Positions 2,533-49,890 are shown, counted from the stretch's first letter. The stretch: DNA of 64,000 nt from an uncultured Bacteroidota bacterium (GCA_902776365.1 CACYPU010000002.1:131180-195179), one strand, 5' to 3'. Notes: generated by a model from the sequence alone, not told the origin. Numbers and translations are program-made.

Positions 2533-3534
2533 TCACTCTTGGTTGTCGATGTTGAACTGCAGCGTGGCACCGTCTTTGCGCACGTCGATGGTCACAGGGG
2601 CACCCATCACCAACGGCAGGTTCACCTCGTCGTGGCCGGCAGGGAATCCGCAGAGCACGGGAATGTTGTATTTTTCAAAATAGGGTCGTAACATGGCTTC
2701 GACGCTCTCGTAGGAGAATTCTTTCTCGCAGCCAGTAAACTCGCCCAGTATCACCCCCTTGCAACGGTCCAGAACTCCATTCAAAAGGAGCGCGTTGAAC
2801 TGGCGGTCGACATTGCGCATGGGTTCGTCGACTTCTTCGAGGAAGAGAATGATATCATTCCCGAGGGTGGCGTCGGCTTGGGTTCTGAGATTGGGAGCGA
2901 GGGTGCATAGGTTGCCTCCTACCAGTATGCCGCTGGCTTTACCTTCGATGTTCTGTGGATGTGAGGGAATCTCGTAGTGTGGCACGGATCCCATCAGCAA
3001 GTCGCGCATCAGGGTGCTGTTCTTGTCCTTGCCGCCATGTGCCAGGAATTTACCCATGGTGCCGTGGATGCTCATCACGCCGGCACGTGTCAGGAGCCCG
3101 TGCAGCGTGGTGATGTCGCTGAAACCCACAAGCCACTTCGGGTGTGCGGCCCACTCCTCGAGCGGAATTGAGTCAATGTACTGGATTGTGCCGTAGCCGC
3201 CACGGTTGCAGATGATGGCCTTGATGGTGGTGTCGCTCAATGCCCAGCGCAGGTCGCTCACACGCTGCTCCACCGTTCCGGCATACTTCCCTGCATACAG
3301 GCTGTCGACATTGGGACCGATAACGGGCTCCAATCCCCAACCGCGCAGCACCTCGGCGGCCATTTTTACATCCTCTATTGGAACGGAGTAGGAGGGAGAG
3401 AGGAGCGCCACACGGTCGCCCGCCTTCAAGTAAGGAGGTTTCTCGCAGTGGATATTAATGGCATTTTGGCCGAAAAGATTCGTTGTGCAAACCGATGCTA
3501 GCATAAGCACTAAAATAATTGTTCGTTTTATCAT
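2533..3534 (-). CDS. LD-carboxypeptidase (peptidase S66, LdcA/MccF-like), exported
   Basis: 333-aa ORF with a signal peptide. S66 hallmarks are VGFSDITTLH (nucleophile Ser) and C-terminal GFPAGHD. Confidence 0.85.
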   Translation of the reverse strand: MIKRTIILVLMLASVCTTNLFGQNAINIHCEKPPYLKAGDRVALLSPSYSVPIEDVKMAAEVLRGWGLEPVIGPNVDSLYAGKYAGTVEQRVSDLRWALSDTTIKAIICNRGGYGTIQYIDSIPLEEWAAHPKWLVGFSDITTLHGLLTRAGVMSIHGTMGKFLAHGGKDKNSTLMRDLLMGSVPHYEIPSHPQNIEGKASGILVGGNLCTLAPNLRTQADATLGNDIILFLEEVDEPMRNVDRQFNALLLNGVLDRCKGVILGEFTGCEKEFSYESVEAMLRPYFEKYNIPVLCGFPAGHDEVNLPLVMGAPVTIDVRKDGATLQFNIDNQE

Positions 3535-3568
3535 TCTTGATTCTTAACTCTTAATTCTCAATTCTCCA
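3534..3568. repeat. heptanucleotide array (5 units)
   Basis: TTCTTGA TTCTTAA CTCTTAA TTCTCAA TTCTCCA. It fills the whole gap between the start of 2533..3534 and the stop of 3551..4303, and encodes the C-terminal RIEN* of the latter. Confidence 0.9.
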
Positions 3569-4303
3569 AAACACCCCCACTGATCCGTAGATGGGATACA
3601 GCGTCTGTTCCACCGTCTTGAAGTCGCTTTGGAATATGCAGGAGAGACCCCAGTGCAGGTCGGCGGAAAGTCCGAGACGGCTGCTCATCTGCCAGTCCAC
3701 TCCTATGCCCACGCCCCACTGCAGGCTCCGCATGTCGTCGCTGAAGTCGTATGTGGCCCACTCGCCCTCTTTGTTTCCTATCTCGATTTTAGGTCCTGTA
3801 GGGTCGCCTTGGCGCAGGTAGCCGTCGGAGGCAATGCCGCTGAATTCTTTGGAGACCAGCAGCGACACATAAGGACCTAGTCTAAATCGGAAATCGGAAA
3901 TTGATAATTGAAAACTCACCGGTACTGTTAGCATCCACTGGCTCACCTCCTGTGACACATGTCCCCAAAAGAGGCCGCTAATCTGACTGTTGCCTTTTAC
4001 CATCGCCATGCGATAGCCCCTGACTGTCACCTCTGCATCCATGCCTTTGTTTTCGAGACGGATTCCTCCAACCACGGACCACTGCCCTCTGACCACAGGA
4101 ATAGTCATCTCGGCACCAATGCACGGAGAAAATGTCGGTCGGAAGGCATCGATGCTGCGTATCGACGCCGGCAGGGATAGGGGAGAGGTACCCCCGAAGT
4201 TGTAGCCAATCCGCAACCTCACGTCTACACTATCAATCACTCCCGCCCTGACGCCCATCACGCTCATTAATCCAATTAACCCCAACAATAACGCCTTTTT
4301 CAT
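3551..4303 (-). CDS. outer-membrane beta-barrel protein (PorT/OmpA-barrel-like)
   Basis: 250 aa with a signal peptide (MKKALLLGLIGLMSVMGVRA), alternating beta-strand pattern and an aromatic C-terminus. Confidence 0.7.
   Translation of the reverse strand: MKKALLLGLIGLMSVMGVRAGVIDSVDVRLRIGYNFGGTSPLSLPASIRSIDAFRPTFSPCIGAEMTIPVVRGQWSVVGGIRLENKGMDAEVTVRGYRMAMVKGNSQISGLFWGHVSQEVSQWMLTVPVSFQLSISDFRFRLGPYVSLLVSKEFSGIASDGYLRQGDPTGPKIEIGNKEGEWATYDFSDDMRSLQWGVGIGVDWQMSSRLGLSADLHWGLSCIFQSDFKTVEQTLYPIYGSVGVFWRIEN
3884..3918. repeat. heptanucleotide array inside the OMP CDS
   Basis: AAATCGG AAATCGG AAATTGA TAATTGA AAACTCA. It is translated on the minus strand as ..SFQLSISDFRFRL.. Confidence 0.85.
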
Positions 4304-4338
4304 AACTCTTAATTCTTAACTCTTAACTAATCACTCAA
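4304..4338. repeat. heptanucleotide array (5 units)
   Basis: AACTCTT AATTCTT AACTCTT AACTAAT CACTCAA. It begins directly after the start codon of 3551..4303 and runs into the stop of 4331..5524. Confidence 0.9.
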
Positions 4339-5524
4339 ATTCCACTTCCACCTCGTCGATATACAGTGTGCTGCCCACGGCGCCCTCGAAGGTGTCGCCG
4401 TCTTTGCTCGACGAGAAGACCACAGTGAAACTGTAGCCCATGGCGGCGAGAATCTCAGGGTCGGCGGTGCCGCCCTCGAACAGCATCTCGAAATGAGTCC
4501 ACTCGTCGGTGGGCGCAGGCCCGATAATCTGAGCCTTGCTGACGATATACTCGCTGCTCAGCACATTGGTGCCGTTAAGTACCACGGGATTGCCGTTGCT
4601 ATCCTGGTTGCGGTAGAAGACGGCATAGAAATGTGCTTGGTCCACCCGTCCGGCGACCTCCTCCATGTCGACGTTGGTGAACACCTCGCCTGGACGGTAT
4701 TTGTACCAGCCGCACACTTTCTTCGGCTGTCGGTTGGTGGGGAAGCCGAACTCGGTGGCCGCCAATGCATTGGTGAGCACGGCGTTGACGTTGAACTGTC
4801 CCCAGAAGAGGTTGCCTGCGGCGATAGGCTTGCCCATGCTGGCACCCAGTTCTCCTGTCAGTTGTGTGTTCAGGCACACGCCTCGTCCCCGCAACCCATC
4901 GCTTGTCGAATAGGTGGGGAACTGCTCGGGACTCAGTCCTGACTTGATGATGGCCACTCCAGCATTTCCTGAAGCCCAGTAGTGGTAGCGCGTGCCGTTG
5001 GTATCCTCCTCATAGAAAACATGATAGGAACTGCCGTTGCTCACCTCCTGCACCTCTGCGTGCTCAAAGCTGAAGAAGAACGAAGAATCGGAGTTGGCCT
5101 TCTGAAGATAGACGTGGTACGTGCGGCTCCACTCGCCGTCCTCCGAAGTCACCGTGTATGCTACCGGCCCCTGCGAGAAATCCTGAAGCGTGCCGCTCTC
5201 AGGCGTCACCGTTGCCCCGGGACTCAACTCGAAATACACGGGTATCGGCGGCAGACTGTCGACAGAGCGCACCAGGAAAACAATTGTTGTGCTGTTCGAT
5301 GCCACATGCTCTATCCGCATCTGCGAATTCTGGTAAAAGAAACTTGCGTATTCGTCGCCCGCCACCCATGCACTCATAATATCGCACTCACTGTTCTTGG
5401 GCTCCTCCTTGATGCATGAGGTGAAAAAAAAGCAAAGTGAAAGGTGAAAAGCGAGAATCAAACCGACACAAATAATTTTGCGCCAAGTTCTAACCACTGA
5501 CCACTGACTATTGTCTACATTCAT
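4331..5524 (-). CDS. PCMD domain-containing lipoprotein
   Basis: PCMD-like block HYWASGNAGV..AAGNLFWGQFN..FGFPTNRQPKKVCGWYKYRPG. Lipobox ..FFFTSC. The start is trimmed to the ATG at 5524, which lies 21 nt downstream of a TAnnTTTG box. Confidence 0.75.
   Translation of the reverse strand: MNVDNSQWSVVRTWRKIICVGLILAFHLSLCFFFTSCIKEEPKNSECDIMSAWVAGDEYASFFYQNSQMRIEHVASNSTTIVFLVRSVDSLPPIPVYFELSPGATVTPESGTLQDFSQGPVAYTVTSEDGEWSRTYHVYLQKANSDSSFFFSFEHAEVQEVSNGSSYHVFYEEDTNGTRYHYWASGNAGVAIIKSGLSPEQFPTYSTSDGLRGRGVCLNTQLTGELGASMGKPIAAGNLFWGQFNVNAVLTNALAATEFGFPTNRQPKKVCGWYKYRPGEVFTNVDMEEVAGRVDQAHFYAVFYRNQDSNGNPVVLNGTNVLSSEYIVSKAQIIGPAPTDEWTHFEMLFEGGTADPEILAAMGYSFTVVFSSSKDGDTFEGAVGSTLYIDEVEVEFE
5487..5514. 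repeat. heptanucleotide array (4 units) in the 5' end of a CDS
   Basis: GTTCTAA CCACTGA CCACTGA CTATTGT. It encodes N-terminal ..SQWSVVRT.. ahead of the signal peptide. Confidence 0.75.
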
Positions 5525-8118: not shown

Positions 8119-8601
8119 TTATTTTCCGAAGCGGTAGCGGATGCCGAGGGCGATGTCACCCCAGTGGAAGCTCGTGTTGGGGATGAGCCAGAAGTTGGGG
8201 CGGATGTCCAGCGTCAGCTGCAGCGGGAAGTCGAAGTTGTACTCGATACCGGCTTGACCGACAAGAGCGAGGGCGACGTCGGATTTGTTGCCATCGTGCT
8301 CGTGACCTGCTTCATAGCTCCAGAAAGCCAAGCGTGCACCGAAGCCAGCATACCAGCTGAATCCGCTTCCAATGTCGCCAGTCCACTGGTAGACACCAGT
8401 GAGGCTCAGGTTCGAATGGTGGTCGTGGTTGCCCCAGCCAAGGTCGGTCTCGAGACGGTTGCCACCGAGGCCCCACATGGCGGAGAGTTCAGCGCCGTAG
8501 CCCTGGCCACCGCCGATACGGGCGCCAAGGTCCTGAATCTGTGCATTAGCCATCGTGCTCATGGCAAAAATTGCCACAACAGTTAATAGGATTTTCTTCA
8601 T
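8119..8601 (-). CDS. small outer-membrane beta-barrel protein
   Basis: 160 aa with a signal peptide (..MSTMANA), Gly/aromatic-rich strands and a C-terminal ..RYRFGK. Confidence 0.7.
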   Translation of the reverse strand: MKKILLTVVAIFAMSTMANAQIQDLGARIGGGQGYGAELSAMWGLGGNRLETDLGWGNHDHHSNLSLTGVYQWTGDIGSGFSWYAGFGARLAFWSYEAGHEHDGNKSDVALALVGQAGIEYNFDFPLQLTLDIRPNFWLIPNTSFHWGDIALGIRYRFGK

Positions 8602-8719: not shown

Positions 8720-9133
8720 CTACTTGAAAAAATCGAAGAAGAAGTACAAGGCGGCGTATCTCTGTGGCACTCCTTTGGCAGAGCCTATGCTGCTATTGTT
8801 GCTGTTGCGGACGGTGCCGTCGCTTTCCACCTTGCCTATCTGGCTGTTATTGCTGTTACGGACGGTGCCGTCGCTCTCTATTTTGCCAATATGTCTACCC
8901 GAACGGTCACGGACGGTGCCGTCGCTTTCGAGTTTGCCTATTTGAGCGCCGTTGCTGTTGCGGATGACGCCGTCGCTCTGGATGTTGCCAATCTTAAAAT
9001 GGTTGCTGCTGCGGACGGTTCCGTCGCTCTCGATGGTGGCAATGGCGGCGTTGTTGCTGTTTCGGATAGTCTGTGCCTGCCCCGTGGACAATAGGCATAG
9101 AATAAAGAATACAATGTAAAATAGACGTTTCAT
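8720..9133 (-). CDS. secreted tandem-repeat protein (6 x 17-aa units)
   Basis: The start is trimmed to MKRLFYIVFFILCLLSTGQAQ (ATG at 9133). The mature part consists of TVRNSNNSQIGKVESDG-type repeats. Confidence 0.7.
   Translation of the reverse strand: MKRLFYIVFFILCLLSTGQAQTIRNSNNAAIATIESDGTVRSSNHFKIGNIQSDGVIRNSNGAQIGKLESDGTVRDRSGRHIGKIESDGTVRNSNNSQIGKVESDGTVRNSNNSSIGSAKGVPQRYAALYFFFDFFK
8765..9070 (-). repeat. 51-nt coding tandem repeat, about 6 copies
   Basis: The recurring peptide unit [TV][IV]R.S[NG]...IG.[IL][EQ]SDG was read directly from the ORF. Confidence 0.8.
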
Positions 9134-9175
9134 TGTTCTGTCTTTCCCCCAATAACGTAAAACCGACCGAAATAT

Positions 9176-9209
9176 TGTACAAAAGCAGGTTGCGTTTGGC
9201 AACCTGCTT
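9176..9209 (-). terminator. intrinsic terminator downstream of tRNA-Met
   Basis: 11-bp stem AAGCAGGTTGC/GCAACCTGCTT followed by TTTTGT on the minus strand. Confidence 0.75.
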
Positions 9210-13338: not shown

Positions 13339-14595
13339 TTATTTCAGGTTGAATTTAATCTTTTTCTCTCCGCGAATGGTCTTCACACCCACGGTGTACA
13401 TGCCCTTGGGCATCTTGTTGATTTTAATCTTCTTGCCGCTCACATAGTTTTCTACAGTCTTCACCACCTTGCCATCCTTGTTGGTGAAGGTGACGGTGGC
13501 CGAGGGACTCTCGATGGTGAGGGTGATGTAGCCTTCCTCGAGGTTAGGCTGGATGCGTACGTTCTCGTCGCTGGGGCCGTCGTTGTAGGTCGGGGTGTCG
13601 ACACTGGGCGAACTCTTGGCGGGCATGGTGAAGCCGCTGAGTTTGGCCAGCCCGCGGTTGTCGTTGCCGAACCAGTGGTTGCCGTAACTGTCGTGGCATA
13701 CCTTGTAGGTGTTGCCGGCAGGCAGTTTGCAGTTCTTCGAGGTGAAGACCACCCAGTTGTCCTCGCCGTCGAACACCGCGACGCCGTCGTTGGTGGCCAG
13801 CCACAGCAGGCCGTCGCCGTCGATGGCGATGTCGTTCACCTGGTTGCTGGGCAGGGGGCTGTTCTTGGTGTTCCACACTTTCCATGAGCGGCCGTCGAAA
13901 CGGGCTAGGCCGCTGAGGGTGCCGAACCACTTCACGTCGTTCTGGTCGATAACGATAGCGGGCACGATAGCGTCAGGCAGCTCCGAGTTGAAAGGGGTGT
14001 AGCTGTACCAGCGAGTGCCGTCATACACGCTCACGCCGGCATTGGTGGTAATCCATTTGCGGTTCGAGCGGTCCACCGCCAGGTCGAGCACAAAGTCGCT
14101 CAGCAGTTCGCAGTCGTCGGGGGTGAATTTCTCCCAGCTGCGGCCGTCGTAGCGCACGATGCCGCCCAGCGTCACACCAATCCACACCACCTCATCCTTG
14201 TCGATGACAATTTCCTTGACGAATTTCATCTTCAGCCTCCGTGTCTCCTCGCTGTGCTCCTGCCACGTGGTGCCGTCCCATTCGATGACGCCGTAGTCGT
14301 CGGTGCCAATCCACAGGATGCCGCGCTTGTCCACCATCAGGCAGTTCACCGACTGCCCCTTGAGTTTCTCGTTGAACATGGCATAGTCGGTCCAAGTGTT
14401 GCCCTTCAGGCGGCAGAGGCCTTGGTACGAGCCTGCCCACAGCAGGTTGTCGTCGGCCGTGATGGCCGAGATGTTGTTGCCGCAGATGTCGCTCGTCCGC
14501 GTATCGTAGACGGTCCAGACTCCATTCTGAGCTATGGCCATATTGCCCAATAAACCCATTAAGCCCATCAGGCCTATTATGATTCTTTTTGTCAT
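13339..14595 (-). CDS. beta-propeller protein (two-component-regulator propeller repeats) with T9SS-like C-terminal domain
   Basis: Repeated W.GT..G...[FW]DG..W units (WIGTDDYGVIEWDGTTW, WFGTLSGLARFDGRSW and others). It has a signal peptide and a C-terminal beta-sandwich-like tail (MPKGMYTVGVKT..KFNLK). Confidence 0.75.
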   Translation of the reverse strand: MTKRIIIGLMGLMGLLGNMAIAQNGVWTVYDTRTSDICGNNISAITADDNLLWAGSYQGLCRLKGNTWTDYAMFNEKLKGQSVNCLMVDKRGILWIGTDDYGVIEWDGTTWQEHSEETRRLKMKFVKEIVIDKDEVVWIGVTLGGIVRYDGRSWEKFTPDDCELLSDFVLDLAVDRSNRKWITTNAGVSVYDGTRWYSYTPFNSELPDAIVPAIVIDQNDVKWFGTLSGLARFDGRSWKVWNTKNSPLPSNQVNDIAIDGDGLLWLATNDGVAVFDGEDNWVVFTSKNCKLPAGNTYKVCHDSYGNHWFGNDNRGLAKLSGFTMPAKSSPSVDTPTYNDGPSDENVRIQPNLEEGYITLTIESPSATVTFTNKDGKVVKTVENYVSGKKIKINKMPKGMYTVGVKTIRGEKKIKFNLK

Positions 14596-15899
14596 GTTTT
14601 GTGTTTTTCTTTCTTTGCTGCTGGAAACAATATATTGTTCAGTATCAGTCGGTATCCGGGTGAGTTGGGGTAGAGTGAGAGGTCAGTGGGTGGGTCGCCG
14701 ATGAAGTGTCGGTAGTCCTCGGGGTCGTGGCCGCCGAGGAAGGTCCAGGTGCCTTTGCCGTATTCGCCGTGCAGGTAGCGCACCTCGCCCAGTTCCTTGT
14801 TGTCGGCCAGAATGACGCAGCTGGTTTTCACCAGTTCGCTGCGGAAGGCGGTGGTCTGACCCATAAAGCCATGCACCAGACGTGTGTGGTTCTGCGTCAG
14901 CATCGTCGGCACCCAGTCCCATTTGGCCGAGAAGTCGAAGAGCACAAAGAAGTCGTTCTTCTCGTTCACCAGCTTCTGTCGTGTGCGGTCGTCGATGTCG
15001 ATGGTCGATATCTCATATTCCGTGGGGTTGGTACTGATACGGAAGTCTTTGAATGCAAAGCATTTGCTGTAATCCAGCGCCGACTGTGCGTTGGGTTGCA
15101 TGGGGTCGCCGTCGAACATCTCGGCGCAGATGTCCACGCCGTCGGCCGCCAGCGCCACATCGTAGCTGTCGGGTGCCGAGCACATGGCGAAGAGGAATCC
15201 GCCGCCCATCACAAAGTCGCGTATCTTTTTGACCACCGCCAGCTTGAGGAGACTTACCTTGCTGAAGCCCAGCTTGTGCGCTGTAGCCTCCTGCAGCTTG
15301 ACATCCTCGATGTACCACTGCTGGCTGCGGTAGTTGGCCCAGAACTTGCCATACTGTCCCGTGAAATCCTCGTGGTGCAGGTGCAGCCAGTCGTAGGTGG
15401 GCAGCACGCCGCTCATCACCTCCTCGTCGTACACCACGTCGTAGGGGATTTCGGCGTAGGTGAGCACCAGCGTCACCGCGTCGTCCCACGGCATCTTGTT
15501 CTTCGGCGAATAGACGGCGATTTTAGGTGCTTTCTGAAGCTTCACGGCGTCCATGTTGACGCTGGGGTCGGCTATGTAGCTGAGGATGGCGCTGCTTTGG
15601 CCGTCGGCGATGACCTCGCAGGTGACGCCGCGGAGCTTGCATTCGCGCTCGATGGCGTCGGCATGCTTCATCATGAAAGTGCCGCCGCGATAGTTGAGCA
15701 GCCAGGTCACCTCCACCTCGCGCTCCAGCGCCCAGTAGGCCACACCGTAGGCTTTCAGGTGGTTCTTCTGCACGTCGTCCATCGGCAATAAAATATAACT
15801 CGCCTGCGCGTGCGCGAACAAAAAAATAAAACATACGGCAACTGCCACACGCTTGGGAAGTGTGTGGAAACAGTAGCCTCTATTTTTTTCAATTTTCAA
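14592..15899 (-). CDS. conserved exported protein, possible GATase1-like fold
   Basis: 435-aa ORF with a GGGFLFAMCSAPDS nucleophile-elbow-like motif. Its stop overlaps the next start (ATGA at 14592-14595). The only upstream start is a TTG that lies within a TTTTCAA array. Function is uncertain. Confidence 0.6.
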   Translation of the reverse strand: MKIEKNRGYCFHTLPKRVAVAVCFIFLFAHAQASYILLPMDDVQKNHLKAYGVAYWALEREVEVTWLLNYRGGTFMMKHADAIERECKLRGVTCEVIADGQSSAILSYIADPSVNMDAVKLQKAPKIAVYSPKNKMPWDDAVTLVLTYAEIPYDVVYDEEVMSGVLPTYDWLHLHHEDFTGQYGKFWANYRSQQWYIEDVKLQEATAHKLGFSKVSLLKLAVVKKIRDFVMGGGFLFAMCSAPDSYDVALAADGVDICAEMFDGDPMQPNAQSALDYSKCFAFKDFRISTNPTEYEISTIDIDDRTRQKLVNEKNDFFVLFDFSAKWDWVPTMLTQNHTRLVHGFMGQTTAFRSELVKTSCVILADNKELGEVRYLHGEYGKGTWTFLGGHDPEDYRHFIGDPPTDLSLYPNSPGYRLILNNILFPAAKKEKHKT

Positions 15900-15920
15900 T
15901 TTTCAATTTTCAATTTTCAA
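15886..15920. repeat. heptanucleotide array, 5 perfect TTTTCAA units
   Basis: Read directly. It lies between the 5' end of 14592..15899 and the tRNA-Leu 3' end. Confidence 0.95.
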
Positions 15921-15926
15921 TTTGTG

Positions 15927-16073: not shown

Positions 16074-16108
16074 CTTTCACCTTACACCTTTCATCTTTCA
16101 CCTTTCTT
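16074..16108. repeat. heptanucleotide array (5 units)
   Basis: CTTTCAC CTTACAC CTTTCAT CTTTCAC CTTTCTT. It supplies the msrA C-terminal ..KKGER* and the stop codon. Confidence 0.9.
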
Positions 16109-16679: not shown

Positions 16680-16713
16680 TTTTGCCAGTTCAAAAAATGT
16701 TCGTATCTTTGCA
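16680..16713 (+). repeat. 34-nt promoter-containing direct repeat, copy 1
   Basis: TTTTGCCAGTTCAAAAAATGTTCGTATCTTTGCA is identical to 17222..17255. It contains a TTTG -33-like box and a TATCTTTG -7 box (16704..16711). Confidence 0.9.
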
Positions 16714-16742
16714 ACCTCAAACTTTAAAAAACAAGGATAAAG

Positions 16743-17150
16743 ATGAAGAAAATTTTCACTTTACTATCTATTGCCTTTATCGCGGCTTTGAGTATAGGTA
16801 CAGCCTCATGCAGCAGCAAGGAGTCAAAACTCCTTGGAAAATGGAATCTTGTAAAAGAGGGATATAACAGTCGCGGGATGATGGACGTCGATGGAACATA
16901 CTGGGAGTTTTTAGAAGGGAATACGGTTATTGTAGAAGAAAATGGTGTAAAAGATTATGGAACATGGAAATTGATTACCGATGTGGGGGCGTTGAAGAGG
17001 GATTATTTGGTGATTGATATGGATAGTAGAAAGGATTTGTCCGAAAGATATTACGTGTCACAATTGGCGGAAAAAGCCGGTTCAGATGCAAGCCCGCGTT
17101 TGACGTTGGTAATTGAAGATGAACAATATCTGTTTTCTTTTACAAAGTGA
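16743..17150 (+). CDS. lipocalin-like small lipoprotein
   Basis: Lipobox GTASCSS followed by the LLGKWNLVKE motif. One of four paralogs in the window (30398, 31031, 39258). Confidence 0.75.
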   Translation: MKKIFTLLSIAFIAALSIGTASCSSKESKLLGKWNLVKEGYNSRGMMDVDGTYWEFLEGNTVIVEENGVKDYGTWKLITDVGALKRDYLVIDMDSRKDLSERYYVSQLAEKAGSDASPRLTLVIEDEQYLFSFTK

Positions 17151-17221
17151 TAGGCTCTCGTACTGCCAACGTCAATAAAAACGACACCAGGAGGCTTGTT
17201 TCCTAAAAATGGTGAAAAATA

Positions 17222-17255
17222 TTTTGCCAGTTCAAAAAATGTTCGTATCTTTGCA
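17222..17255 (+). repeat. 34-nt promoter-containing direct repeat, copy 2
   Basis: Perfect copy of 16680..16713. Its -7 box is at 17246..17253, upstream of the L31 pseudogene. Confidence 0.9.
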
Positions 17256-17326
17256 GCACGAAAAAAGTAAACGAATTATAAACAATCGTCTAACAATTAA
17301 TGGGTTAGACGGCAAAAAGTAAAGAA

Positions 17327-17537
17327 ATGAAAAAAGGAATTCATCCCGAAAACTATCGCCTCGTGGTGTTCAAAGACATGTCCAACGACCACATGATTCT
17401 CACCAAGAGCTGTGCCAACACCAAAGACGAACACCTCGCACCCCTTCTTCACTGGCAAGCTGAAACTCGTTGACACCGCTGGTCGCGTCGACAAGTTCAT
17501 GAACAAGTACAAAAAGTACGCCAAGAAGGCCGAGTAA
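17327..17537 (+). pseudogene. rpmE2: 50S ribosomal protein L31 type B, internal deletion plus frameshift
   Basis: Frame 1 reads [35 protein letters not shown].., then a nonsense tail and TGA at 17471. Frame 2 continues [35 protein letters not shown]. The total span is 211 nt, which is not a multiple of 3. About 17 central residues are missing. Confidence 0.8.
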
Positions 17538-17578
17538 TCGGACGGCTTGAAGTTCTTTCAAGCAGAAGGCCGAATAAT

Positions 17579-17606
17579 GGTTAACGGTTAAAGATTAAAG
17601 GTTAAA
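17579..17606. repeat. heptanucleotide array (4 units)
   Basis: GGTTAAC GGTTAAA GATTAAA GGTTAAA. Confidence 0.9.
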
Positions 17607-17625
17607 GAGGCTGCCGCAGCAAAAT

Positions 17626-17660
17626 CGTTAATCATTAATCAGTAAACAGTAATCATTACA
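17626..17660. repeat. heptanucleotide array (5 units)
   Basis: CGTTAAT CATTAAT CAGTAAA CAGTAAT CATTACA. Confidence 0.9.
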
Positions 17661-17702
17661 AAAAAGAAAAGTAATTTGTTTTAGATTTAGTGGATCTAGA
17701 AG

Positions 17703-17731
17703 CCCCGCCGACCATCGGCGGGGTTTTCTTT
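17703..17731 (+). terminator. intrinsic terminator
   Basis: Stem CCCCGCCG/CGGCGGGG followed by TTTTCTTT. Confidence 0.75.
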
Positions 17732-17776
17732 CGTCTGTCTTAATAAAAATATTTTTGTAAAATAATTTTTTTTCTT

Positions 17777-17784
17777 TAAGTTTG
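17777..17784 (+). promoter_or_regulatory. -7 box TAnnTTTG
   Basis: TAAGTTTG upstream of the sigma factor gene. Confidence 0.5.
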
Positions 17785-17845
17785 CAAAAGTAATTATTTG
17801 CTGTGAAAAAAAATAAGGTTTTGATAATTAATATAATAATTCTTA

Positions 17846-18448
17846 ATGGCTACAATCATCCCTTTCTATCGCAAGCGTTTTGTCTATGAAAATGATGCGC
17901 AGATGGTATTGGCGGTCATGGTCGGCGATGAGGGAGCCACACGCTACCTCTTCTATGACCACTATACCGCCCTCTTGCGGAAAAATTATAACAAAGTCGT
18001 CGGTCAACTCCCTGTACAGTTCGACGATCTTGTCCAGGAACTTTACCTCTATCTTTGCGAAAATGATTGGGGAAAACTAAAAAAATTTGACCCTGATAAA
18101 GATGACTTTGTTTGTTGGTTTTCAACTGTTTCGTTTCGATTCTTCAAAGATTGCTGCAAAAAAAAGTTCTATTCGTCGACAGATTTCTCCGACGACATTC
18201 CTAATTATGATAAAAGAGAGTCCTACTTTGATTGGGAAAATAGCGAACTCATGCGAGACCTCAGACGCGTGTTACCTTTCTTTCAGCCACCCCGCGACAG
18301 AGAAATTATCGAGGCCACCATTATCCACGACGAGCCCATCGCAGAGGTCGCCAAACGCTACAACCTGACCGAGAACAATCTCTCTACCATCAAGCGCAGG
18401 GCTTTGGCCCGCCTGGTGGCAACCTATTTGTCGGACTATAAAAAATGA
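17846..18448 (+). CDS. ECF-type sigma-70 family RNA polymerase sigma factor
   Basis: Region 2-like segment (LVQELYLYLCEN..WFSTVSFRFFKD) and a region 4 HTH (IAEVAKRYNLTENNLSTIKRRALARL). Confidence 0.8.
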   Translation: MATIIPFYRKRFVYENDAQMVLAVMVGDEGATRYLFYDHYTALLRKNYNKVVGQLPVQFDDLVQELYLYLCENDWGKLKKFDPDKDDFVCWFSTVSFRFFKDCCKKKFYSSTDFSDDIPNYDKRESYFDWENSELMRDLRRVLPFFQPPRDREIIEATIIHDEPIAEVAKRYNLTENNLSTIKRRALARLVATYLSDYKK

Positions 18449-19332: not shown

Positions 19333-19396
19333 TTTTCTGAAAAAAAAGTACCCATCAGCTGTCATAAATCATTTCGTTCATCCCTAGTTATAAGTG

Positions 19397-19424
19397 AAGG
19401 GGCCCCGGCCGGGGCCCCTTTTCA
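19397..19424 (+). terminator. intrinsic terminator-like GC hairpin
   Basis: Palindrome AAGGGGCCCCGG/CCGGGGCCCCTT followed by a short T run. Confidence 0.6.
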
Positions 19425-29280: not shown

Positions 29281-29290
29281 GTTGGATAAG

Positions 29291-33400: not shown

Positions 33401-33477
33401 AACCATATTTCGACCATATTTCTACCATTGTTCTTCCATTTAAATGAAAGAACAATGGAAGAACAATGGAAGAACAG
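33401..33477. repeat. seven 11-bp units with dyad symmetry
   Basis: AACCATATTTC GACCATATTTC TACCATTGTTC TTCCATTTAAA TGAAAGAACAA TGGAAGAACAA TGGAAGAACAG. The arms are inverted about position 33441. Confidence 0.85.
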
Positions 33478-35130: not shown

Positions 35131-37059
35131 TTAACCGACCACGATAGATTCATCGTCTTCGATGCGTAGGTTGCTCATAATGAATTCGCGTCGTTCGAGG
35201 GTGTTCTCGCCCATGTAGAAGGAGAGGACGCCTTTGGTGTCGAAGTCTTTGTGGAGTAACACGGGGTCGAGGCGCATGTCTTTGCCGATGAAGTTCTTGA
35301 ATTCGTCGGGAGAGATTTCGCCGAGGCCTTTGAATCGGGTGATTTCGGCCTTGGGAGTGTCGTGGATGGCGGCGATGCGTTCGTCGTCGGTGTAGCAGTA
35401 GGTGGTTTTCTGTTTGTTGCGTACGCGGAAGAGTGGAGTCTGGAGGATGTAGACGTGGCCTGTCTGGATGAGTTCGGGGTAGAAGCGGAGGAAGAAGGTG
35501 AGGAGGAGTAGACGAATGTGCATGCCGTCGACATCGGCATCGGTGGCGATGACGACGTTGTTGTAGCGAAGGTTTTCGATGCCGTCGTCGATGTCGAGGG
35601 CGTTGTGGAGTAGGTTAAGTTCCTCGTTCTTGTAGACGTCGACTTTGGAGATGGAGTAGGTGTTCTTGGGTTTTCCGCGGAGGGAGAAGACGGCCTGGGT
35701 GTCGACATCGCGAGATTTTGTAATGGAGCCGGAGGCGGAGTCGCCCTCGGTGATGAAGATGGTGCTTTCGAGTCGTCGGGCGTGGTTGGTGTTGTAGTGG
35801 ACGTGGCAGTCGCGGAGCTTGCGGTTGTTGAGGGAGGCTTTCTTGCCGGCTTCGCGAGCCACCTTCTTGATGCCTGCTATCTCTTTGCGTTCCTTTTCGT
35901 TGGCGTTGATTTTAGCGAGTAGGGCGTCGGCGGTTTCGGAGTGCATGTGGAGGTAGTTGTCGAGGTTGCGCTTGAGGATGTCGAGGACGTAGGTTTTGAG
36001 GAGTGGCGAGTCGTTGGAGCCGTCGACCTTGTTGGGTTCGAGGTGTGTGGAGCCGAGCTTGGTTTTTGTTTGAGCCTCGAAGACGGGTTCTTGGATGCGG
36101 ACGCAGAGGGCGCAGACGAGTCCCTGTCGGATGACTTCAGGGGAGTAGTCTTTCTTGATGAAGTCCTTGACGACGCGTGCGTAGGCTTCGCGGAAGGCGC
36201 TCTGGTGAGTGCCGCCCTCGGTGGTGTGCTGGCCGTTGACGAAGGAGTAGTAGTAGTCGTTGGATTGGCCGTTGACGTGGGTGAAGGCGGCTTCGAAGTC
36301 GCCCTCTTTGATGTGGATGATGGGGTAGAGGGGGTCGGACTGGAGGTTGTTCTCGAGGAGGTCGAGGAGTCCGTTCTTGGAGTAGTAGCGGCGGTCGTTG
36401 TAGTACATGGTGAGGCCGCGGTTGAGGTAGCAGTAGTTCCAGATGCGGCGTTCGACGTATTCGGAGATGAAGTGGTAGTTGCCGAAGAGCTTGCTGTCGG
36501 GGATGAACTCAACCAATGTGCCATTGGTTGAGTCAGTGGGTAGTGGGTGGTGGGTAGTGGGTAGTATTTCTGTAATGCCACTGTCGTTGGTGAGTTTGCC
36601 TTCGGAGAATTCGGCGATGCGGGTTTTGCCGTCGCGGATGGCTTGCACTTTGAAATAGCTGCTGAGGGCGTTGACGGCCTTGGTGCCCACGCCGTTGAGG
36701 CCCACGGACTTCTGGAAGACTTTGCTGTCGTATTTGGCTCCGGTGTTGAGTTTGCTGACGGCTTCGACGAGTTTGCCGAGTGGGATTCCGCGGCCGTAGT
36801 CGCGGATGGAGACCTTGCGTTCGGCGAAGTTGATTTTCACTTCGATTTTCTTGCCGAAGCCAGAGGTGAATTCGTCGATGGCATTGTCGATGACCTCTTT
36901 GATGAGGACGTAGATGCCGTCGTCGTGTGAGGAGCCGTCGCCGAGTTTGCCGATATACATACCGGGACGGAGGCGGATGTGTTCCATGTCCTCGAGGTGG
37001 ACGATGGAGTCGTCGTTGTAGTCGATGGGATTGGTGTTGAGTAGGTCTGTTTGCTCCAT
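35131..37059 (-). CDS. parE: DNA topoisomerase IV subunit B
   Basis: GHKL ATPase motifs ([15 protein letters not shown]) and Toprim motifs ([17 protein letters not shown]). The N-terminus is Bacteroidota ParE-like rather than GyrB-like. Confidence 0.85.
36534..36568. repeat. TAGTGGG-family heptanucleotide array inside parE
   Basis: CAGTGGG TAGTGGG TGGTGGG TAGTGGG TAGTATT, translated as [13 protein letters not shown]. Confidence 0.9.
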
Positions 37060-37064
37060 GATAT

Positions 37065-37099
37065 CAGTGTTCAGTGTTTAGTGGGTAGTTGATTATTCT
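37065..37099. repeat. heptanucleotide array filling the parE/upstream-gene gap
   Basis: CAGTGTT CAGTGTT TAGTGGG TAGTTGA TTATTCT. Confidence 0.85.
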
Positions 37100-39123
37100 T
37101 CATCGAGTTTCATTTCGGATGTGATGGTGTAGCCTGTTTTTTCGCCGTCGGAGACGGGTTGGCCAGTGAGGATGGTGAACTGGCTTTCGCTGACTCCTTG
37201 CTCGACGAGGTAGCGGCGTACGATGCCGTTGCGGAATTCGTATCCGCGGGCCACGGTGTCGTTGGCGGGGGCGGGCATGTGCTGTTCGAGGGTGAAGTGG
37301 ACGAGGGAGTCGGACTTGGCGATGGTGGCGAGGTCGCCGAGGATATGGTAGTGCTCGGAGGTGAGTCCGCGCTGGCCGGGTTCGATTTCGATGAATTCGA
37401 GGTTGTCGTTGCCGAATCCGAAGACGTTACCCAGTGCGCGGACGGGCGAGGTGGCCACTTTGACGAGCAGGTTGCCGAGGGTCTTCCATACGATTTTCAT
37501 GTAGCTGAACTCGGGGCTGTCGATGTTTCCCGCGACGGGGATATCGAAGAGAATCTTGTCGTCCTTGTCTTTGAGGATGTAGAGGGCGGTTTTGAGAGGC
37601 AGCTTCTGCTGAGGCTCGATGTCGCTGCGACGGCTGCCGACCTTGGCTTTGTAGATGTCGATTTTGTTTTTGCCGTTGAGGCTGCTGTTCTTGATGGTGT
37701 TGTGCGAGGTGAGGCCGAAGATGCCATCCTCGATGGGTTGGCCGGTGTAGTAGACCGACCATGGTGAGAACTGCCTCATGTCGAGACCTTTGATGGAGAT
37801 GAAGATGTCCTGATGCTGTTTCCAATGGTCGATGTCGCCGGTCCATTTCACCATCAGATGGCCTCCGCCGGGCAGGGTGGCGCGGAGTTTGGCGTTGTTG
37901 CTGCCGCTGAGGGTGAGGTCGGAGGCTTCGATATTGAGGTCGGTGATGGGGAAGGTGAAGAGGTCGGGGAGGGTGTGGTCGTTGTAGGTGAGGTTGCCGT
38001 TGGTGACGGCGAACTCGTGGACGGTCAAGTTGAGGGGACTTCCGGTGGTGTTGGTGTTGGTGTCTTCGGGTTCTTCGGGTTCTTCGGAATTGACGGGTTC
38101 TTCGGAATTGACGGGCTCTTCGGAATTGCCAGATGTTTTTATCAGGCCGTCGATGGTGCTGTGGTCGGCCCATTGGTCGTAGCGGGCGGTGAGGCCCTCG
38201 AGGCGTAGGCTCTGGATGTCGTAGTTGTTGGCGTCGAGGTTGATGTTGTTGACGGCGATGTCGAGCCGTTGCCATCCAGCCACCTGGCCGTTGTTGTCCT
38301 GCAGGTCGACTTCCGACACCGTCACGGTGCCGCCGATGCGGCTCTTGGTGATTTCGCTGACGTTGCCAGAGGCTTTGAGGTGAAGGTCGAGTTTGCCGCT
38401 GAGTTTCTGGTAGTTGAGGATGTCGGAGAGGATGGGCGCCAGGTTGTCGAATTTGAATTTCTCGAGTTTGACGGCGAGGTCGTAGGTGCCCTGTTGTTCG
38501 TGGTAGCTGCCGGCGATATTCAGGTGACCGCCTTTGGCGAAGGCGATATTGAGGCCACCCTCGCTGGCTTGGTCTCCGCCCAATTCCAGATTGGGAACCA
38601 GGAGGTTGATGTCGGGCAGGTGCCACTGTTTGTTTTCGCCGACGTCGTTGTAGTGGATTTGGGCGTGGCTGAGGCGTATGTTGTGGAGTTTGATGAGCCA
38701 GTCGCTCGGGGTGGTGTCCTGCACCTCCTCGGTGGTGTCGGAGGCGAAATGGTCGAGCATGGTTTGGAAGTTAAAGTCCTCGCCACGCTTGACGATGTTG
38801 ACATTGAGTCCCGAGAGGGTGATGTGCTCGAGTTCGACGGTATGGCTGAGGAGTTTGAAGAGGCTGGCTTTGGTGTCGAGGGTGTCGAAGCGGGCGAAAA
38901 CATCTTTCCCGTTGTCTTCGTAGAGGGTGAGGCCGAGGATGGCAACATGGCCGTTGTAGACGTTGATGGTGACGTCGTCGACATGCACCTCGCGGCCTAC
39001 CAGCTCCTTGCCGTGACTGTTGATGTAGCTTTTGGCGATGGGTGACAATAGCAGTGTGGCCAGGATGATGAGTGCCAGCAGGATGCCTATTGTCCACAGG
39101 ACTATTTTCCAAACACGTTTCAT
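37093..39123 (-). CDS. membrane-anchored AsmA/DUF748-like protein
   Basis: 676 aa with an N-terminal TM (IVLWTIGILLALIILATLLL) and a long beta-rich body. The DUF748 assignment is from memory of Bacteroides homologs. Confidence 0.65.
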   Translation of the reverse strand: MKRVWKIVLWTIGILLALIILATLLLSPIAKSYINSHGKELVGREVHVDDVTINVYNGHVAILGLTLYEDNGKDVFARFDTLDTKASLFKLLSHTVELEHITLSGLNVNIVKRGEDFNFQTMLDHFASDTTEEVQDTTPSDWLIKLHNIRLSHAQIHYNDVGENKQWHLPDINLLVPNLELGGDQASEGGLNIAFAKGGHLNIAGSYHEQQGTYDLAVKLEKFKFDNLAPILSDILNYQKLSGKLDLHLKASGNVSEITKSRIGGTVTVSEVDLQDNNGQVAGWQRLDIAVNNINLDANNYDIQSLRLEGLTARYDQWADHSTIDGLIKTSGNSEEPVNSEEPVNSEEPEEPEDTNTNTTGSPLNLTVHEFAVTNGNLTYNDHTLPDLFTFPITDLNIEASDLTLSGSNNAKLRATLPGGGHLMVKWTGDIDHWKQHQDIFISIKGLDMRQFSPWSVYYTGQPIEDGIFGLTSHNTIKNSSLNGKNKIDIYKAKVGSRRSDIEPQQKLPLKTALYILKDKDDKILFDIPVAGNIDSPEFSYMKIVWKTLGNLLVKVATSPVRALGNVFGFGNDNLEFIEIEPGQRGLTSEHYHILGDLATIAKSDSLVHFTLEQHMPAPANDTVARGYEFRNGIVRRYLVEQGVSESQFTILTGQPVSDGEKTGYTITSEMKLDEE
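38064..38130 (-). repeat. 9/18-nt coding tandem repeat (SEEPVN)
   Basis: TCTTCGGGT x2 then TCTTCGGAATTGACGGGT x2.5. The protein reads SEEPVNSEEPVNSEEPEEPE. Confidence 0.85.
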
Positions 39124-39694: not shown

Positions 39695-40306
39695 TTATTC
39701 GTAGAAGTGCATCTCTGTGAGGTACTTGTACACCGGTTCGGTGAGCAGGTAGCGTACGTCTTTATGTGCCGCGATTTGCTGTCGGATGTAGCTGGAGGAG
39801 ATGTCCATCATGGGCACGTCGACCATTGTCACGCTGGGGTGTGAGGCGAGTTCGCAATGCTCGGAGCCGGGACGGGGATAGACGAGGAGGCGGTAGTGGT
39901 CGAGGATATACTGGTAGTTGCGCCATTTCTTGAATGTGTAGAGGTTGTCGCTTCCCATGACGAGGCAGAACTTCCGGTCGGGGTATTTTTCCTGTAGTGC
40001 GGCGAGGGTGACCACCGTGTAGCTGGGGATGGGGAGGTGCATCTCGATGTCGCAGACTTTCAGACGGTAGTTGTCGTCGATGGCCCGCTGCACCATCTGC
40101 AGGCGGTGGTGGTCGGCGAGGAGGGAGGCGCGTTCTTTCAGCGGGTTCTGTGGCGAGACGACAAGCCACACCTCATCAACGCCCTCCAGCTGGAGTATGG
40201 TATTGGCGATGATGAGGTGCCCGACATGAATGGGATTGAAGGAGCCAAAAAAAAGAGCGGTGCTCTTTTTTTTAGTGGGTAGTGGGTAGTGGGTAGTGGG
40301 TAGCAT
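39695..40306 (-). CDS. nadD: nicotinate-nucleotide adenylyltransferase
   Basis: FFGSFNPIHVGH (HxGH) and ISSSYIR motifs. The ATG at 40306 gives an N-terminal [15 protein letters not shown] that is encoded by the heptamer array. Confidence 0.85.
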   Translation of the reverse strand: MLPTTHYPLPTKKKSTALFFGSFNPIHVGHLIIANTILQLEGVDEVWLVVSPQNPLKERASLLADHHRLQMVQRAIDDNYRLKVCDIEMHLPIPSYTVVTLAALQEKYPDRKFCLVMGSDNLYTFKKWRNYQYILDHYRLLVYPRPGSEHCELASHPSVTMVDVPMMDISSSYIRQQIAAHKDVRYLLTEPVYKYLTEMHFYE

Positions 40307-40404
40307 ACTACAACTATTTCTCTGAAGGTAGGGTGTTGGCAAGGGAGGATGTGTAGGTAGTATGCCCCATATGCTACACACTACCCACTATCCACTACCC
40401 ACTA
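40273..40404. mobile_element. MITE-like unit: two 35-nt TAGTGGG-array arms in inverted orientation around a 62-nt spacer
   Basis: Left arm is TAGTGGG x4 + TAGCATA (40273..40307). The right arm (40370..40404) is its reverse complement with 2 mismatches. Confidence 0.6.
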
Positions 40405-48053: not shown

Positions 48054-48095
48054 AGTTATTAATTTTGAATTATTATATTTGAATGCTGAATTATT
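48054..48095. repeat. heptanucleotide array (6 units)
   Basis: AGTTATT AATTTTG AATTATT ATATTTG AATGCTG AATTATT. It fills the fba/upstream-gene gap. Confidence 0.85.
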
Positions 48096-49049: not shown

Positions 49050-49057
49050 CAAAATTA
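49050..49057 (-). promoter_or_regulatory. -7 box TAnnTTTG
   Basis: Minus-strand TAATTTTG upstream of 49029. Confidence 0.55.
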
Positions 49058-49080
49058 CGAAAAAAAAATCAACTGACCAA

Positions 49081-49115
49081 ATTTTCAATTCTCAATTTTC
49101 ATTTTTCAATTTGAA
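49081..49115. repeat. heptanucleotide array (5 units)
   Basis: ATTTTCA ATTCTCA ATTTTCA TTTTTCA ATTTGAA. It encodes the ispE C-terminal ..FQIEK* and the stop. Confidence 0.9.
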
Positions 49116-49890
49116 AGATGCCAAAGACGGCAGCCCCGCTGCCGGTCATGGAGGCGTAGAGGGCTCCGCGGCGGTACATCTCCTCCTTCAGTTCCGCAAT
49201 GGCTGGATGCGCAGGGAAAACTGAAGCCTCGAAGTCGTTGACAATGAGGTTGCGCCATTCCTCGACGGGTTTCTTTATCGTCTCCCGCAAGTTGGGCCGT
49301 GTCGCGCCGAACAGGTCGTGGTTTAGGCCGGCGTAAGCTTCTTTCGTCGACACATGCTCCCCTTCGGGAATCTCAATTTGAATTGAAAATTGAGAATTGA
49401 GAATTGAGATTTCGTGAAGTGACTCTAACTGGTCACCGATGCCAGTGGCAAAAGCGGGGCGGTTCTGGATGAAGAAAGCACAGTCGGCACCGAGTTTGGC
49501 GGCACGTTGCTCCAATTCGGCGGTACTCAACTCCAAAGAGAACATCTCATTGAGCATCTTCAGCGTGAAGGCGGCGTCGCTGCTGCCGCCACCAAGGCCT
49601 GCACCGAAGGGGATGTTCTTCTTCAGTCGGATGCTCACGGCAGGGATGTTAAACTCCTCATGCAGAAGCTTCCAGGCATTCATACAGAGGTTGTCTTCGG
49701 GGGCGTTGTCAAGGGCGATGCCGTCTTGGGACATAGTGGGTAGTGGGTAGTGGGTAGAGGGTAGTATTTCCAGCTCGTCTCGGAGGTCGCTGACTGGAAG
49801 GAAGATGGTCTCCAGGTCGTGGTAACCGTCCGCCCGCTTGCCCACCACGTGCAACCCCAGGTTTATCTTACAATTCGGAAAAGAAATCAT
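49099..49890 (-). CDS. ispE: 4-(cytidine 5'-diphospho)-2-C-methyl-D-erythritol kinase
   Basis: GHMP kinase motif PFGAGLGGGSSDAA and N-terminal PNCKINLGL. Confidence 0.9.
   Translation of the reverse strand: MISFPNCKINLGLHVVGKRADGYHDLETIFLPVSDLRDELEILPSTHYPLPTMSQDGIALDNAPEDNLCMNAWKLLHEEFNIPAVSIRLKKNIPFGAGLGGGSSDAAFTLKMLNEMFSLELSTAELEQRAAKLGADCAFFIQNRPAFATGIGDQLESLHEISILNSQFSIQIEIPEGEHVSTKEAYAGLNHDLFGATRPNLRETIKKPVEEWRNLIVNDFEASVFPAHPAIAELKEEMYRRGALYASMTGSGAAVFGIFQIEK
49371..49412. repeat. heptanucleotide array inside ispE
   Basis: TCTCAAT TTGAATT GAAAATT GAGAATT GAGAATT GAGATTT, translated as EISILNSQFSIQIE. Confidence 0.85.
49734..49768. repeat. TAGTGGG-family array inside ispE
   Basis: TAGTGGG x3 TAGAGGG TAGTATT, translated as EILPSTHYPLPTM. 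Confidence 0.9.

Follow-up and report, generated by a model that had tools for sequence, protein, structure and literature searches.

The DNA analysed here, a 64-kb window of an uncultured Bacteroidota bacterium (64,000 nucleotides; CACYPU010000002.1:131180-195179), carries short tandem arrays of heptanucleotide units at gene boundaries and inside genes. These period-7 arrays are genuine and not an assembly artefact, and they belong to the kind described as heptameric simple sequence repeats (SSRs) or short tandemly repeated repetitive (STRR) sequences, with the TAACTGA and GGGAATC repeats as their nearest relatives. We give roughly even odds (a probability of about 0.5) to the reading that they are DNA repeats born and resized by slippage, which are tolerated by translation and affect gene ends passively, and that one family of units (family B, TAGTGGG and its variants) in addition provides the paired or solo arms of a cassette resembling the intervening sequences (IVS) of 23S rRNA. 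New in the arrays described here are a G- or C-free strand in 88% of the units, a preferred length of 31-33 nt, inserts translated as protein loops and an accompanying class of period-11 hairpins. Among the long simple repeats of bacteria, heptamers have for decades been recognised as the most over-represented ones, still without an accepted origin or function.

The genes of the window point to Bacteroidota (PorZ-like and type IX secretion system-sorted proteins, Omp28, an extracytoplasmic function (ECF) sigma factor), the nearest genomes are metagenome-assembled genomes (MAGs) of uncultured rumen Bacteroidales, and a 261-kb rumen scaffold contains the identical sequence. Compared loci and contigs are labelled with L-numbers, L001-L044 being loci of the clade and L083-L430 metagenome and viral contigs.

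Arrays were called with Tandem Repeats Finder (TRF) at a main score cut-off of at least 40 and a looser one of at least 30, and chance was modelled with 40 dinucleotide-preserving shuffles in 2-kb blocks of the window. In the window TRF called 17 arrays of period 7, of which 12 reach a score of at least 40 (3.7-5.4 copies). At the main cut-off the 40 shuffles contained none, at the looser one 1.3 arrays per shuffled window as against 17, and period 7 was far ahead of any other repeat period within the window. By this comparison the arrays are well above chance. The original prediction had listed 17 strict period-7 blocks: TRF recovered 15 of them, 12 with a score of at least 40 and three weakly (3884, 5493 and 37064; 2.3-2.9 copies), whereas the block at 48056 was called with period 14 and the one at 5436-5460 was not called, being too degenerate. 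The perfect array at 15886 was found as described (TTTTCAA x5.4, 100% identity by TRF). Most blocks had been given as five units or 35 nt; their usual size is instead 31-33 nt, corresponding to 4.4-4.7 units, and a threshold-free histogram of run lengths over 792 kb is bimodal with its second mode at 29-34 nt.

Period-7 arrays occur at a density of 9.5 per 100 kb in 44 related loci (728 kb), as compared with 1.0 per 100 kb in 36 loci of other families (584 kb). Within the clade, 69 arrays of period 7 were counted against 17, 17 and 8 of periods 8, 9 and 10, and individual clade members carry between 0 and 6 arrays per 10 kb. Independently assembled genomes of conspecific strains, up to five of them, show the arrays with identical unit numbers. 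The features by which heptameric SSR/STRR sequences are recognised are all present: 7-nt units arranged head to tail in at least three copies, an excess over chance and over neighbouring periods, a mainly intergenic location and changes in unit number. In contigs chosen for the presence of one heptamer array (L083-L202 and L203-L430) we counted 800 period-7 arrays in 2.7 Mb, and the metagenome and viral contigs carrying heptamers span GC contents of 0.30 to 0.73 and include giant-virus bins. Given these contigs, heptamer arrays are far more widespread than the literature consulted suggests.

The units fall into family A (AATTGAA, AATTGAG, AGTTAAG), family B (TAGTGGG, CAGTGGT, CAGTGTT) and family C (GAAAGGT, TAAAGGT), with further families in relatives. 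Many unit sequences thus share one common architecture, in agreement with the earlier proposal of a shared generating process rather than one conserved motif. The GC content of the arrays averages 34% as compared with 55% for the genome, and 88% of the units are without G or C on one strand, as opposed to 22% of random and 43% of intergenic 7-mers. As a general rule for heptamers a G-free strand had to be rejected: elsewhere 23% of units are without G or C, the same as among random 7-mers, and in viral contigs mixed G/C heptamers occur as often as those free of G. The rule is confined to this clade. The unit CTACCCA was likewise rejected as clade-specific, since at least 120 contigs from metagenomes, ranging in GC content from 0.30 to 0.73, contain it. 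Units are shared by 26.6% of array pairs within a genome and by 13.3% of pairs between genomes.

The units are contiguous and without spacers, so the arrays are not CRISPR, as had been noted before. The earlier distinction from repetitive extragenic palindromic (REP) sequences and bacterial interspersed mosaic elements also holds, since ten arrays, folded as single strands, reach minimum free energies of only 0 to -1.6 kcal/mol and do no better than shuffles. The absence of a palindromic unit applies to such single arrays; inverted pairs, in contrast, form long stems. In the window, Rfam models gave only three tRNAs at gathering score, and the REP-like GC hairpins known from relatives were absent.

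Position and orientation were recorded for 95 arrays in 792 kb of clade DNA around one gene neighbourhood, a census in which orthologous sites are counted repeatedly and start sites are approximate, as genes were called with our own codon-usage caller. Although intergenic DNA makes up 11% of the total, 52 of the 95 arrays are intergenic or located at boundaries (p = 8e-25), which substantiates the placement at gene boundaries first seen in the window; 38 arrays (40%) lie well inside called genes. Orientation relative to transcription is neutral overall (37 vs 38). Arrays at stop codons have the A/G/T strand as sense in 19 cases vs 1, those inside coding sequences have the G-poor strand as sense in 26 vs 11, and units with a stop on both strands never occur inside coding sequences. 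A 7-nt unit containing TAA, TAG or TGA exposes a stop codon in all three frames within 21 nt. The A/G/T strand therefore ends any open reading frame (ORF), and its complement is usually open; this all-frame stop argument was made earlier for TAACTGA by MacGregor 2015 (PMC4679880). The gaps between called ORFs at 3535-3550, 4304-4330, 37060-37092 and 48054-48090 are indeed filled end to end, and the C-terminal tails claimed for three genes (Table 1) are translated as described. Arrays do supply stops and tails, but composition suffices and no special mechanism is needed: the donated stops, the short tails and the filling of gaps all follow passively from what the units are made of.

Several arrays are translated within housekeeping enzymes. 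The translated arrays at 49734 and 49380 coincide with gaps in solved homologues of IspE, and the array at 36535 sits in a loop that is variable among solved ParE/GyrB structures and is absent from four orthologues. We compared IspE among 25 orthologues (73-84% identical) and 44 loci. The loop carrying the array at 49734 is variable among orthologues; the first site is occupied by ACTACCC, GTGGGCA or CTCATCA arrays, by GC-rich hairpins or by nothing. The second, the loop of the array at 49380, is occupied by TCAATTC, TTTTCAA, GGAAAGT, CCTCATT or AAATTCG, by the reverse forms AAATTGA/GAATTAA, or by the array-free sequence DLDLSAYRI; at this loop orthologues have seven other types of unit, in one orientation or the other. 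The assignment of the inserts to loops is based on alignment gaps relative to solved homologues and on array-free orthologues; an AlphaFold prediction for IspE that drew on 25 close orthologues was unusable (mean predicted local distance difference test score 46). As IspE, ParE and NadD sites vary in dozens of genomes, the clade allows the translational filtering of repeats and the tolerance of enzymes to be studied. A much larger insertion was seen in another Bacteroidales MAG (RGIG3228; L044 10001-11770), where an IspE ORF of 589 aa contains an in-frame insertion of ~980 nt that encodes a DUF559 (Vsr-like endonuclease) domain between 66-nt repeats holding GC-rich hairpins. It occupies the IspE site of a CCTTTCA heptamer array in L006, with the adjacent ispE sequence being 99% identical, and in L007 and L016 a different IspE site holds short inserts, likewise in frame, with GC-rich hairpin motifs similar to those of L044.

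Change over time was followed among up to five conspecific strains, covering 16 arrays at a background divergence of 1.42%, and between species. One of the 16 arrays differs in length among the strains, the intergenic array at 15886, which is 7 nt (one unit) shorter in two of four strains (L434 and L435). Substitutions within arrays amount to 0.84%. Phase-variable contingency SSRs were rejected as a category, since no array inside a coding sequence changed length across up to five strains. Between species, differences are larger: at the tRNA-Leu junction, ten species have AAATTGA, AAGTTGA, GAGTTAT or AGTGGGT arrays, decayed copies or nothing, and in eight species the differing units are homogeneous within each array. 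Array differences of 21 nt separate L027 from L033, with at least 21 nt between species, an indel of one 11-nt unit separates L006 from L044, and L002 has a period-14 substructure, the pattern of a two-unit duplication. Changes in unit number are rare overall. At seven or more loci independent of one another, TAGTGGG arrays have a common phase, four units plus CTA, and a non-periodic flank of 3-5 nt. An apparent conservation of arrays above background (L022 vs L038, 121/123 nt vs 84%) was withdrawn because the 120-nt flanks are also 93-97% identical. Two further sites show other kinds of change. In an NTP-transferase-like gene compared between L006 (~8140-8225) and L044 (~8145-8230), one genome has an inverted pair of 8-nt arrays where the other has an unrelated REP-like hairpin, the two segments of ~80 nt being nearly equal in length within a 3-kb alignment that is 96% identical. 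In an AsmA-like gene of 676 aa (38063-38128), an 18-nt coding repeat with strain indels of 18 and 27 nt represents ordinary in-frame polymorphism.

The two TAGTGGG-type arrays at 40273 and 40374 form an inverted pair with a 31-bp stem (-62.9 kcal/mol, z -6.9) whose arms are 70 nt apart (40304-40373). In the conspecific contigs L433 and L434 there are 203 nt more between the arms, encoding the first 59 residues of a protein; in the more distant L022 and L038 and in some 30 further rumen contigs the full gene of 120-121 aa is found there, always between the gene for a 198-aa protein and nadD. An arm orthologous to that at 40273 is present in L022, L038, L443, L453 and L463. The encoded protein matches TIGR02436 (2e-35), PF05635 (23S rRNA IVS protein) and bAvd, and distantly Avd of diversity-generating retroelements (DGRs); the four-helix-bundle family PF05635 is described in PMC10053308. 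The window pair is the relic of a cassette whose four-helix-bundle gene was deleted while the arms were left, the 70-nt spacer being the remnant of the gene. A PF05635/TIGR02436 ORF within a long inverted repeat, as expected for an IVS-like cassette, is found in relatives, whereas the window keeps the arms only. In an alignment of the arms over six species 88.7% of cells pair, and six pairs are changed on both sides, compared with 2.5 +/- 1.3 in shuffles (4 of 500 shuffles reach six). All six stem from the lineage of L463, whose arms consist of TAGCAGG upstream and CTACCTG/CTACCAG downstream.

The association between repeat and gene extends beyond the clade. We sampled six unrelated loci with PF05635-family genes, from Bacteroidota and from Firmicutes, and heptamer arrays of YAGTGGN type adjoin the four-helix-bundle gene at all six. 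They form bracketing inverted pairs at five, namely in a rumen metagenome contig (L474), a Tannerella MAG (L478), Desulfotomaculum (L480), Oscillospiraceae (L481) and Gracilibacteraceae (L482), and an array hairpin on the downstream side only in a Bacteroidales MAG (L473). A link between the PF05635 family and heptamer repeats was not found in the literature searched. The association opens testable hypotheses on binding by the protein, on processing by RNase III and on mobility of the cassette, and it bears on what the relatives of the DGR accessory protein, a very large family, do in the cell.

In the reading favoured here, the blocks are short heptanucleotide arrays strongly amplified in one uncultured rumen Bacteroidales lineage. 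They act as double-stranded DNA elements without overall orientation preference relative to genes, evolve by gain and loss of units and by concerted unit change, and between species are replaced wholesale or lost; slippage is favoured as their origin because unit gain and loss and concerted unit change match its prediction. Translation sorts the arrays: the A/G/T strand terminates ORFs, giving rise to stops, tails of 3-5 residues and filled intercistronic gaps, and open-strand arrays survive in variable regions of IspE and ParE and at the N-terminus of NadD where they alter the overall length by a multiple of 3. The family TAGTGGG/CAGTGGN in addition forms discrete arms of ~31 nt with fixed phase, which as an inverted pair bracket the gene of the 120-aa four-helix-bundle protein (23S-rRNA-IVS/Avd-like). 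rRNA intervening sequences are excised by RNase III, and by analogy the paired arms could form a long RNA stem representing a putative RNase III processing site. For most solo arrays we infer that they are tolerated filler without a dedicated function.

Several observations weigh against this scenario. Slippage leaves unexplained why periods 7 and 11 are preferred over 8-10, why array length has a mode at 31-33 nt, why TAGTGGG arrays at seven or more loci agree in phase, unit number and flanks, why units are shared preferentially within genomes, and how unrelated inserts came to lie between flanks that are 98-99% identical. The arrays are not hypermutable according to the strain comparison. 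The compensatory changes in the arms, coming all from L463, could reflect homogenisation of inverted repeats at the DNA level. No link to the four-helix-bundle gene was shown for families A (AATTGAA) and C (GAAAGGT), and the window contains no such gene, nor do 792 kb of clade DNA outside the nadD locus.

The strongest alternative is that the arrays are cis sites of a pentameric Avd-like protein, with about five units matching five subunits, which we regard as rather unlikely. Arrays flanking the gene would be autoregulatory or packaging sites, and solo arrays would be trans targets in an RNA or DNA network or products of a protein-assisted process, an elaboration to which we give the same low credence. 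Avd of DGRs is a pentamer, the solved homologues 2gsc and 2rld are both entries of exactly five chains, and array length peaks at 4.4-4.7 units; five chains per crystal entry, however, are no proof of a pentamer in solution. Inverted YAGTGGN-type arrays bracket family genes at the nadD locus of many clade members and, as described above, arrays flank the gene at six unrelated loci, bracketing it at five, but binding remains putative, and family A and C units are unrelated to YAGTGGN. The source of 2gsc is Xanthomonas campestris, the species of strain ATCC 33913, whose heptamer-rich genome contains ~70 inverted pairs (PMC4692102). On the other hand, the window strain keeps all its arrays though the gene at the nadD locus is lost, and orientation-neutral arrays within ORFs would be odd for RNA sites. 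A broader version, in which YAGTGGN/STRR-type arrays are the cis partner of PF05635 proteins, their pairs arm IVS-like cassettes across phyla, about five units are the footprint of a pentamer and solo arrays are relics or secondary targets, seems to us slightly less doubtful, though still tentative; if true, it would give the long-known heptamer repeats a molecular partner.

Selection of the arrays as structure-free, AT-rich mRNA spacers that aid ribosome loading or translational coupling in the Shine-Dalgarno-poor Bacteroidota is improbable. In the window, start codons lie 0-5 nt from the ends of four arrays, the arrays are unstructured, leaders in the clade are generally G-poor and A-rich, and a precedent was proposed for TAACTGA repeats upstream of start codons (PMC4679880). 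However, 15 of 55 intergenic arrays (27%) adjoin the ATG of a long ORF, compared with 17% of random intergenic 32-mers (p = 0.07), and the orientation of these 15 is mixed (9 vs 6); a dedicated start-codon element was rejected because this adjacency is not significant. In addition, 40% of the arrays lie inside coding sequences and their overall orientation is neutral. Individual starts ascribed to arrays fared differently, though some are indeed supplied by them. The nadD ATG (40306-40304) abuts its array, and every conspecific contig has the same call of a 203-aa NadD. For 14592..15899 the TTG start is plausible, with a signal peptide encoded upstream of the first ATG and ATG-KR... in L004 at the corresponding position, but it is not the only candidate, as an in-frame GTG also exists. 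The ATG for 2533..3534 is doubtful, other gene calls beginning 30 nt downstream (323 aa).

Slightly less probable still is the proposal that family B arrays (TAGTGGG x4) are G-quadruplex or i-motif elements on DNA or RNA like the Xanthomonas GGGAATC repeats. Exactly four G3 tracts, separated by 4-nt loops, are present in the arrays at 40273 and 49734, nearly so at 36535, four tracts in 30-33 nt are the commonest form in unrelated metagenome contigs, and related repeats form G-quadruplexes and i-motifs in vitro (PMC4692102). This would concern one family only, as families A and C do not have four G3 tracts; many orthologous units break the G3 tract (TAGTGGA, TAGTTGA, TAGCAGG), the duplex stem competes with the quadruplex in inverted pairs, and quadruplexes in the window arrays are predicted from sequence. 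Roles as translation spacer or G-quadruplex are thus possible for subsets of arrays and are not supported as general explanations. That the arrays are sequencing or assembly artefacts, for which nothing speaks except that short repeats are able to confuse assemblers, is virtually negligible, because they agree in unit number across assemblies from different samples and studies, reading frames of essential genes stay open through them and related arrays are present in dozens of MAGs.

Heptanucleotide repeats are a described class that includes the STRR sequences of the heterocystous cyanobacteria Calothrix and Nostoc, the GGGAATC repeats of Xanthomonas and the TAACTGA repeats (PMC4679880, PMC4692102), and they are the commonest long SSRs according to Mrazek et al. 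2007, as summarised in the same two papers; the arrays therefore belong to a described kind. With STRR sequences the window arrays share tandem 7-nt units, several unit sequences per genome, a mostly intergenic location and an excess of period 7 over neighbouring periods. In contrast to STRR sequences, which are long and variable, the window arrays are short with a preferred length of 31-33 nt; their host is a rumen Bacteroidales and not a cyanobacterium, and their units are similar but not identical to the canonical three. They further differ in the near G-free strand, in the many cases of translation within housekeeping enzymes and in the period-11 hairpins found alongside. A YAGT/ACTR core is common to STRR units and window units.

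TAACTGA repeats are known from marine Beggiatoaceae, cyanobacteria and five Bacteroidetes (MacGregor 2015, PMC4679880). Like the window arrays they occur in sets of 2-6 heptamers whose forward orientation gives stops in all frames and ends ORFs, whose reverse is occasionally translated, and whose presence differs between close relatives. Membership in this family was rejected, as no two tandem TAACTGA units occur in the window even if up to 2 mismatches are allowed. Most TAACTGA repeats are located a few nt upstream of start codons in forward orientation. The window arrays comprise many unit families, show no significant accumulation just upstream of starts and, besides protein ends, also occupy variable regions in the interior of essential enzymes. 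The quadruplex-forming GGGAATC/GGGGAYT repeats found in Xanthomonas and Nostoc (Rehm et al. 2015, PMC4692102) are G3-N4 heptamers, over half of them with at least four units; convergent inverted pairs are frequent, and position is conserved while length and sequence vary between species. In the window, however, G3 tracts are restricted to the TAGTGGG family, and most arrays are AT-rich without G-quadruplex potential.

Beyond the heptamers, two other systems bear comparison. In 23S rRNA IVS an S23p/four-helix-bundle ORF (PF05635) lies within inverted repeats that are cut out by RNase III. Here too an ORF of the same family is found inside a long inverted repeat and can be lost while the stem stays, but the cassette lies between protein genes, its stem is made of tandem heptamers and its downstream arm is translated as the N-terminus of NadD. 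Rickettsia palindromic elements are palindromes of 100-150 bp found in frame in protein genes. They resemble the window arrays as short repeats that occur in coding as well as non-coding DNA and are tolerated where housekeeping proteins are variable, and differ from them in that the latter are ~32 nt long, tandem and non-palindromic.

Table 1. Tandem arrays of the window, with TRF score and genomic context
Position	Strand	Unit and copies	Evidence	Context
3533..3565	-	AGAATTG-type, 4.7 units	TRF score 45	Tail RIEN*; fills 16-nt gap from stop (3551) of outer membrane protein (OMP) beta-barrel gene (Pfam OMP_b-brl_2) to longest-ORF ATG (3534) of S66 peptidase; length unchanged in 4 strains
3884..3901	+	AAATCGG x2.6, weak	TRF score 36	Inside OMP gene; marginal member
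4303..4328	-	AGTTAAG, 3.7 units	TRF score 45	Fills gap from PCMD lipoprotein stop (4331) to OMP start ATG (4303)
5436..5460	+	GTGAAAG-like, degenerate	TRF none	PCMD signal-peptide codons; doubtful member; holds most strain substitutions
5493..5508	-	CAGTGGT x2.3 (family B)	TRF score 32	PCMD N-terminal codons (SQWSVV)
15886..15923	-	AAATTGA x5.4, perfect	TRF score 76	Begins 2 nt past tRNA-Leu 3' end; contains TTG start candidate of 14592..15899
16074..16106	-	GAAAGGT, 4.7 units	TRF score 52	Spans msrA stop (tail KKGER*); upstream of promoter-like TAnnTTTG of tRNA-Leu
17575..17607	+	TAAAGGT-type, 4.7 units	TRF score 45	Long intergenic region; within segment missing from some strains
17623..17658	+	AATCAGT/AATCATT, 5.1 units	TRF score 44	Unit one mismatch off reverse complement of TAACTGA
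33402..33476	.	Inverted pair of period-11 arrays	TRF; -40.4 kcal/mol, z -8.3	Between convergent genes
36535..36565	+	TAGTGGG, 4.4 units	TRF score 55	Inside ParE/GyrB-like gene, open strand read
37064..37092	+	CAGTGTT>TAGTGGG>TAGTTGA, drifting	TRF score 33 for 37064-37083	Fills gap from stop of 37093..39123 to ParE start (37059)
40273..40303	+	TAGTGGG x4.4	TRF score 62	Downstream arm of inverted pair; NadD residues 2-11
40374..40404	-	TAGTGGG-type x4.4	TRF score 48	Upstream arm, at stop of 198-aa gene
48056..48084	+	AT-rich period 14 (7+7; 2.1 copies)	TRF score 44	Weak as heptamer array; fills gap upstream of fructose-bisphosphate aldolase start (48053)
49080..49112	-	AAATTGA, 4.7 units	TRF score 52	Spans ispE stop (tail FQIEK*); upstream of promoter-like TAnnTTTG site
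49380..49409	+	GAATTGA, 4.3 units	TRF score 53	Inside ispE, open strand = SILNSQFSIQ
49734..49765	+	TAGTGGG, 4.6 units	TRF score 57	Inside ispE = LPSTHYPLPT
63320..63376	+	Period 11, GTAAGAGTTGA x4.9	TRF	Right junction of strain-specific restriction-modification island

Several conspecific strains (L433-L436) lack the window segments 16713-23393 and 23970-30395 or have them rearranged, and the arrays at 17575 and 17623 in the ECF-sigma region therefore lie in variable DNA.

Arrays of period 11 form a class distinct from the heptamers and related to them. Their density is 9.1 per 100 kb in the clade (44 loci) as compared with 0.9 per 100 kb in other families (36 loci), 94% of them are intergenic, and start codons are avoided (1/75). 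They often occur as adjacent inverted pairs that give hairpins with periodic stems, as does the pair at 33402..33476. A common driver of periods 7 and 11 was rejected, since their densities are uncorrelated (rho 0.06). The period-11 array at 63320 adjoins a 12.4-kb strain-specific island (50910-63299) that is missing from contigs 98.4% identical to the window. The island encodes a type I restriction-modification system (HsdR, HsdS, HsdM), a Fic/helix-turn-helix protein and a YhcG/DUF1016 nuclease, together with two unknown ORFs in a stretch of 34% GC.

Two other repeats were noted in the window, a 51/102-nt repeat at 8783-9034 inside ORF 8720..9202 and a perfect 12-nt repeat (x3.2) at 54327-54365 between hsdR and the Fic gene. 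Finally, the coding strand is richer in C than in G in all 4-kb bins of the window, the sign of the GC skew being opposite to the gene strand.

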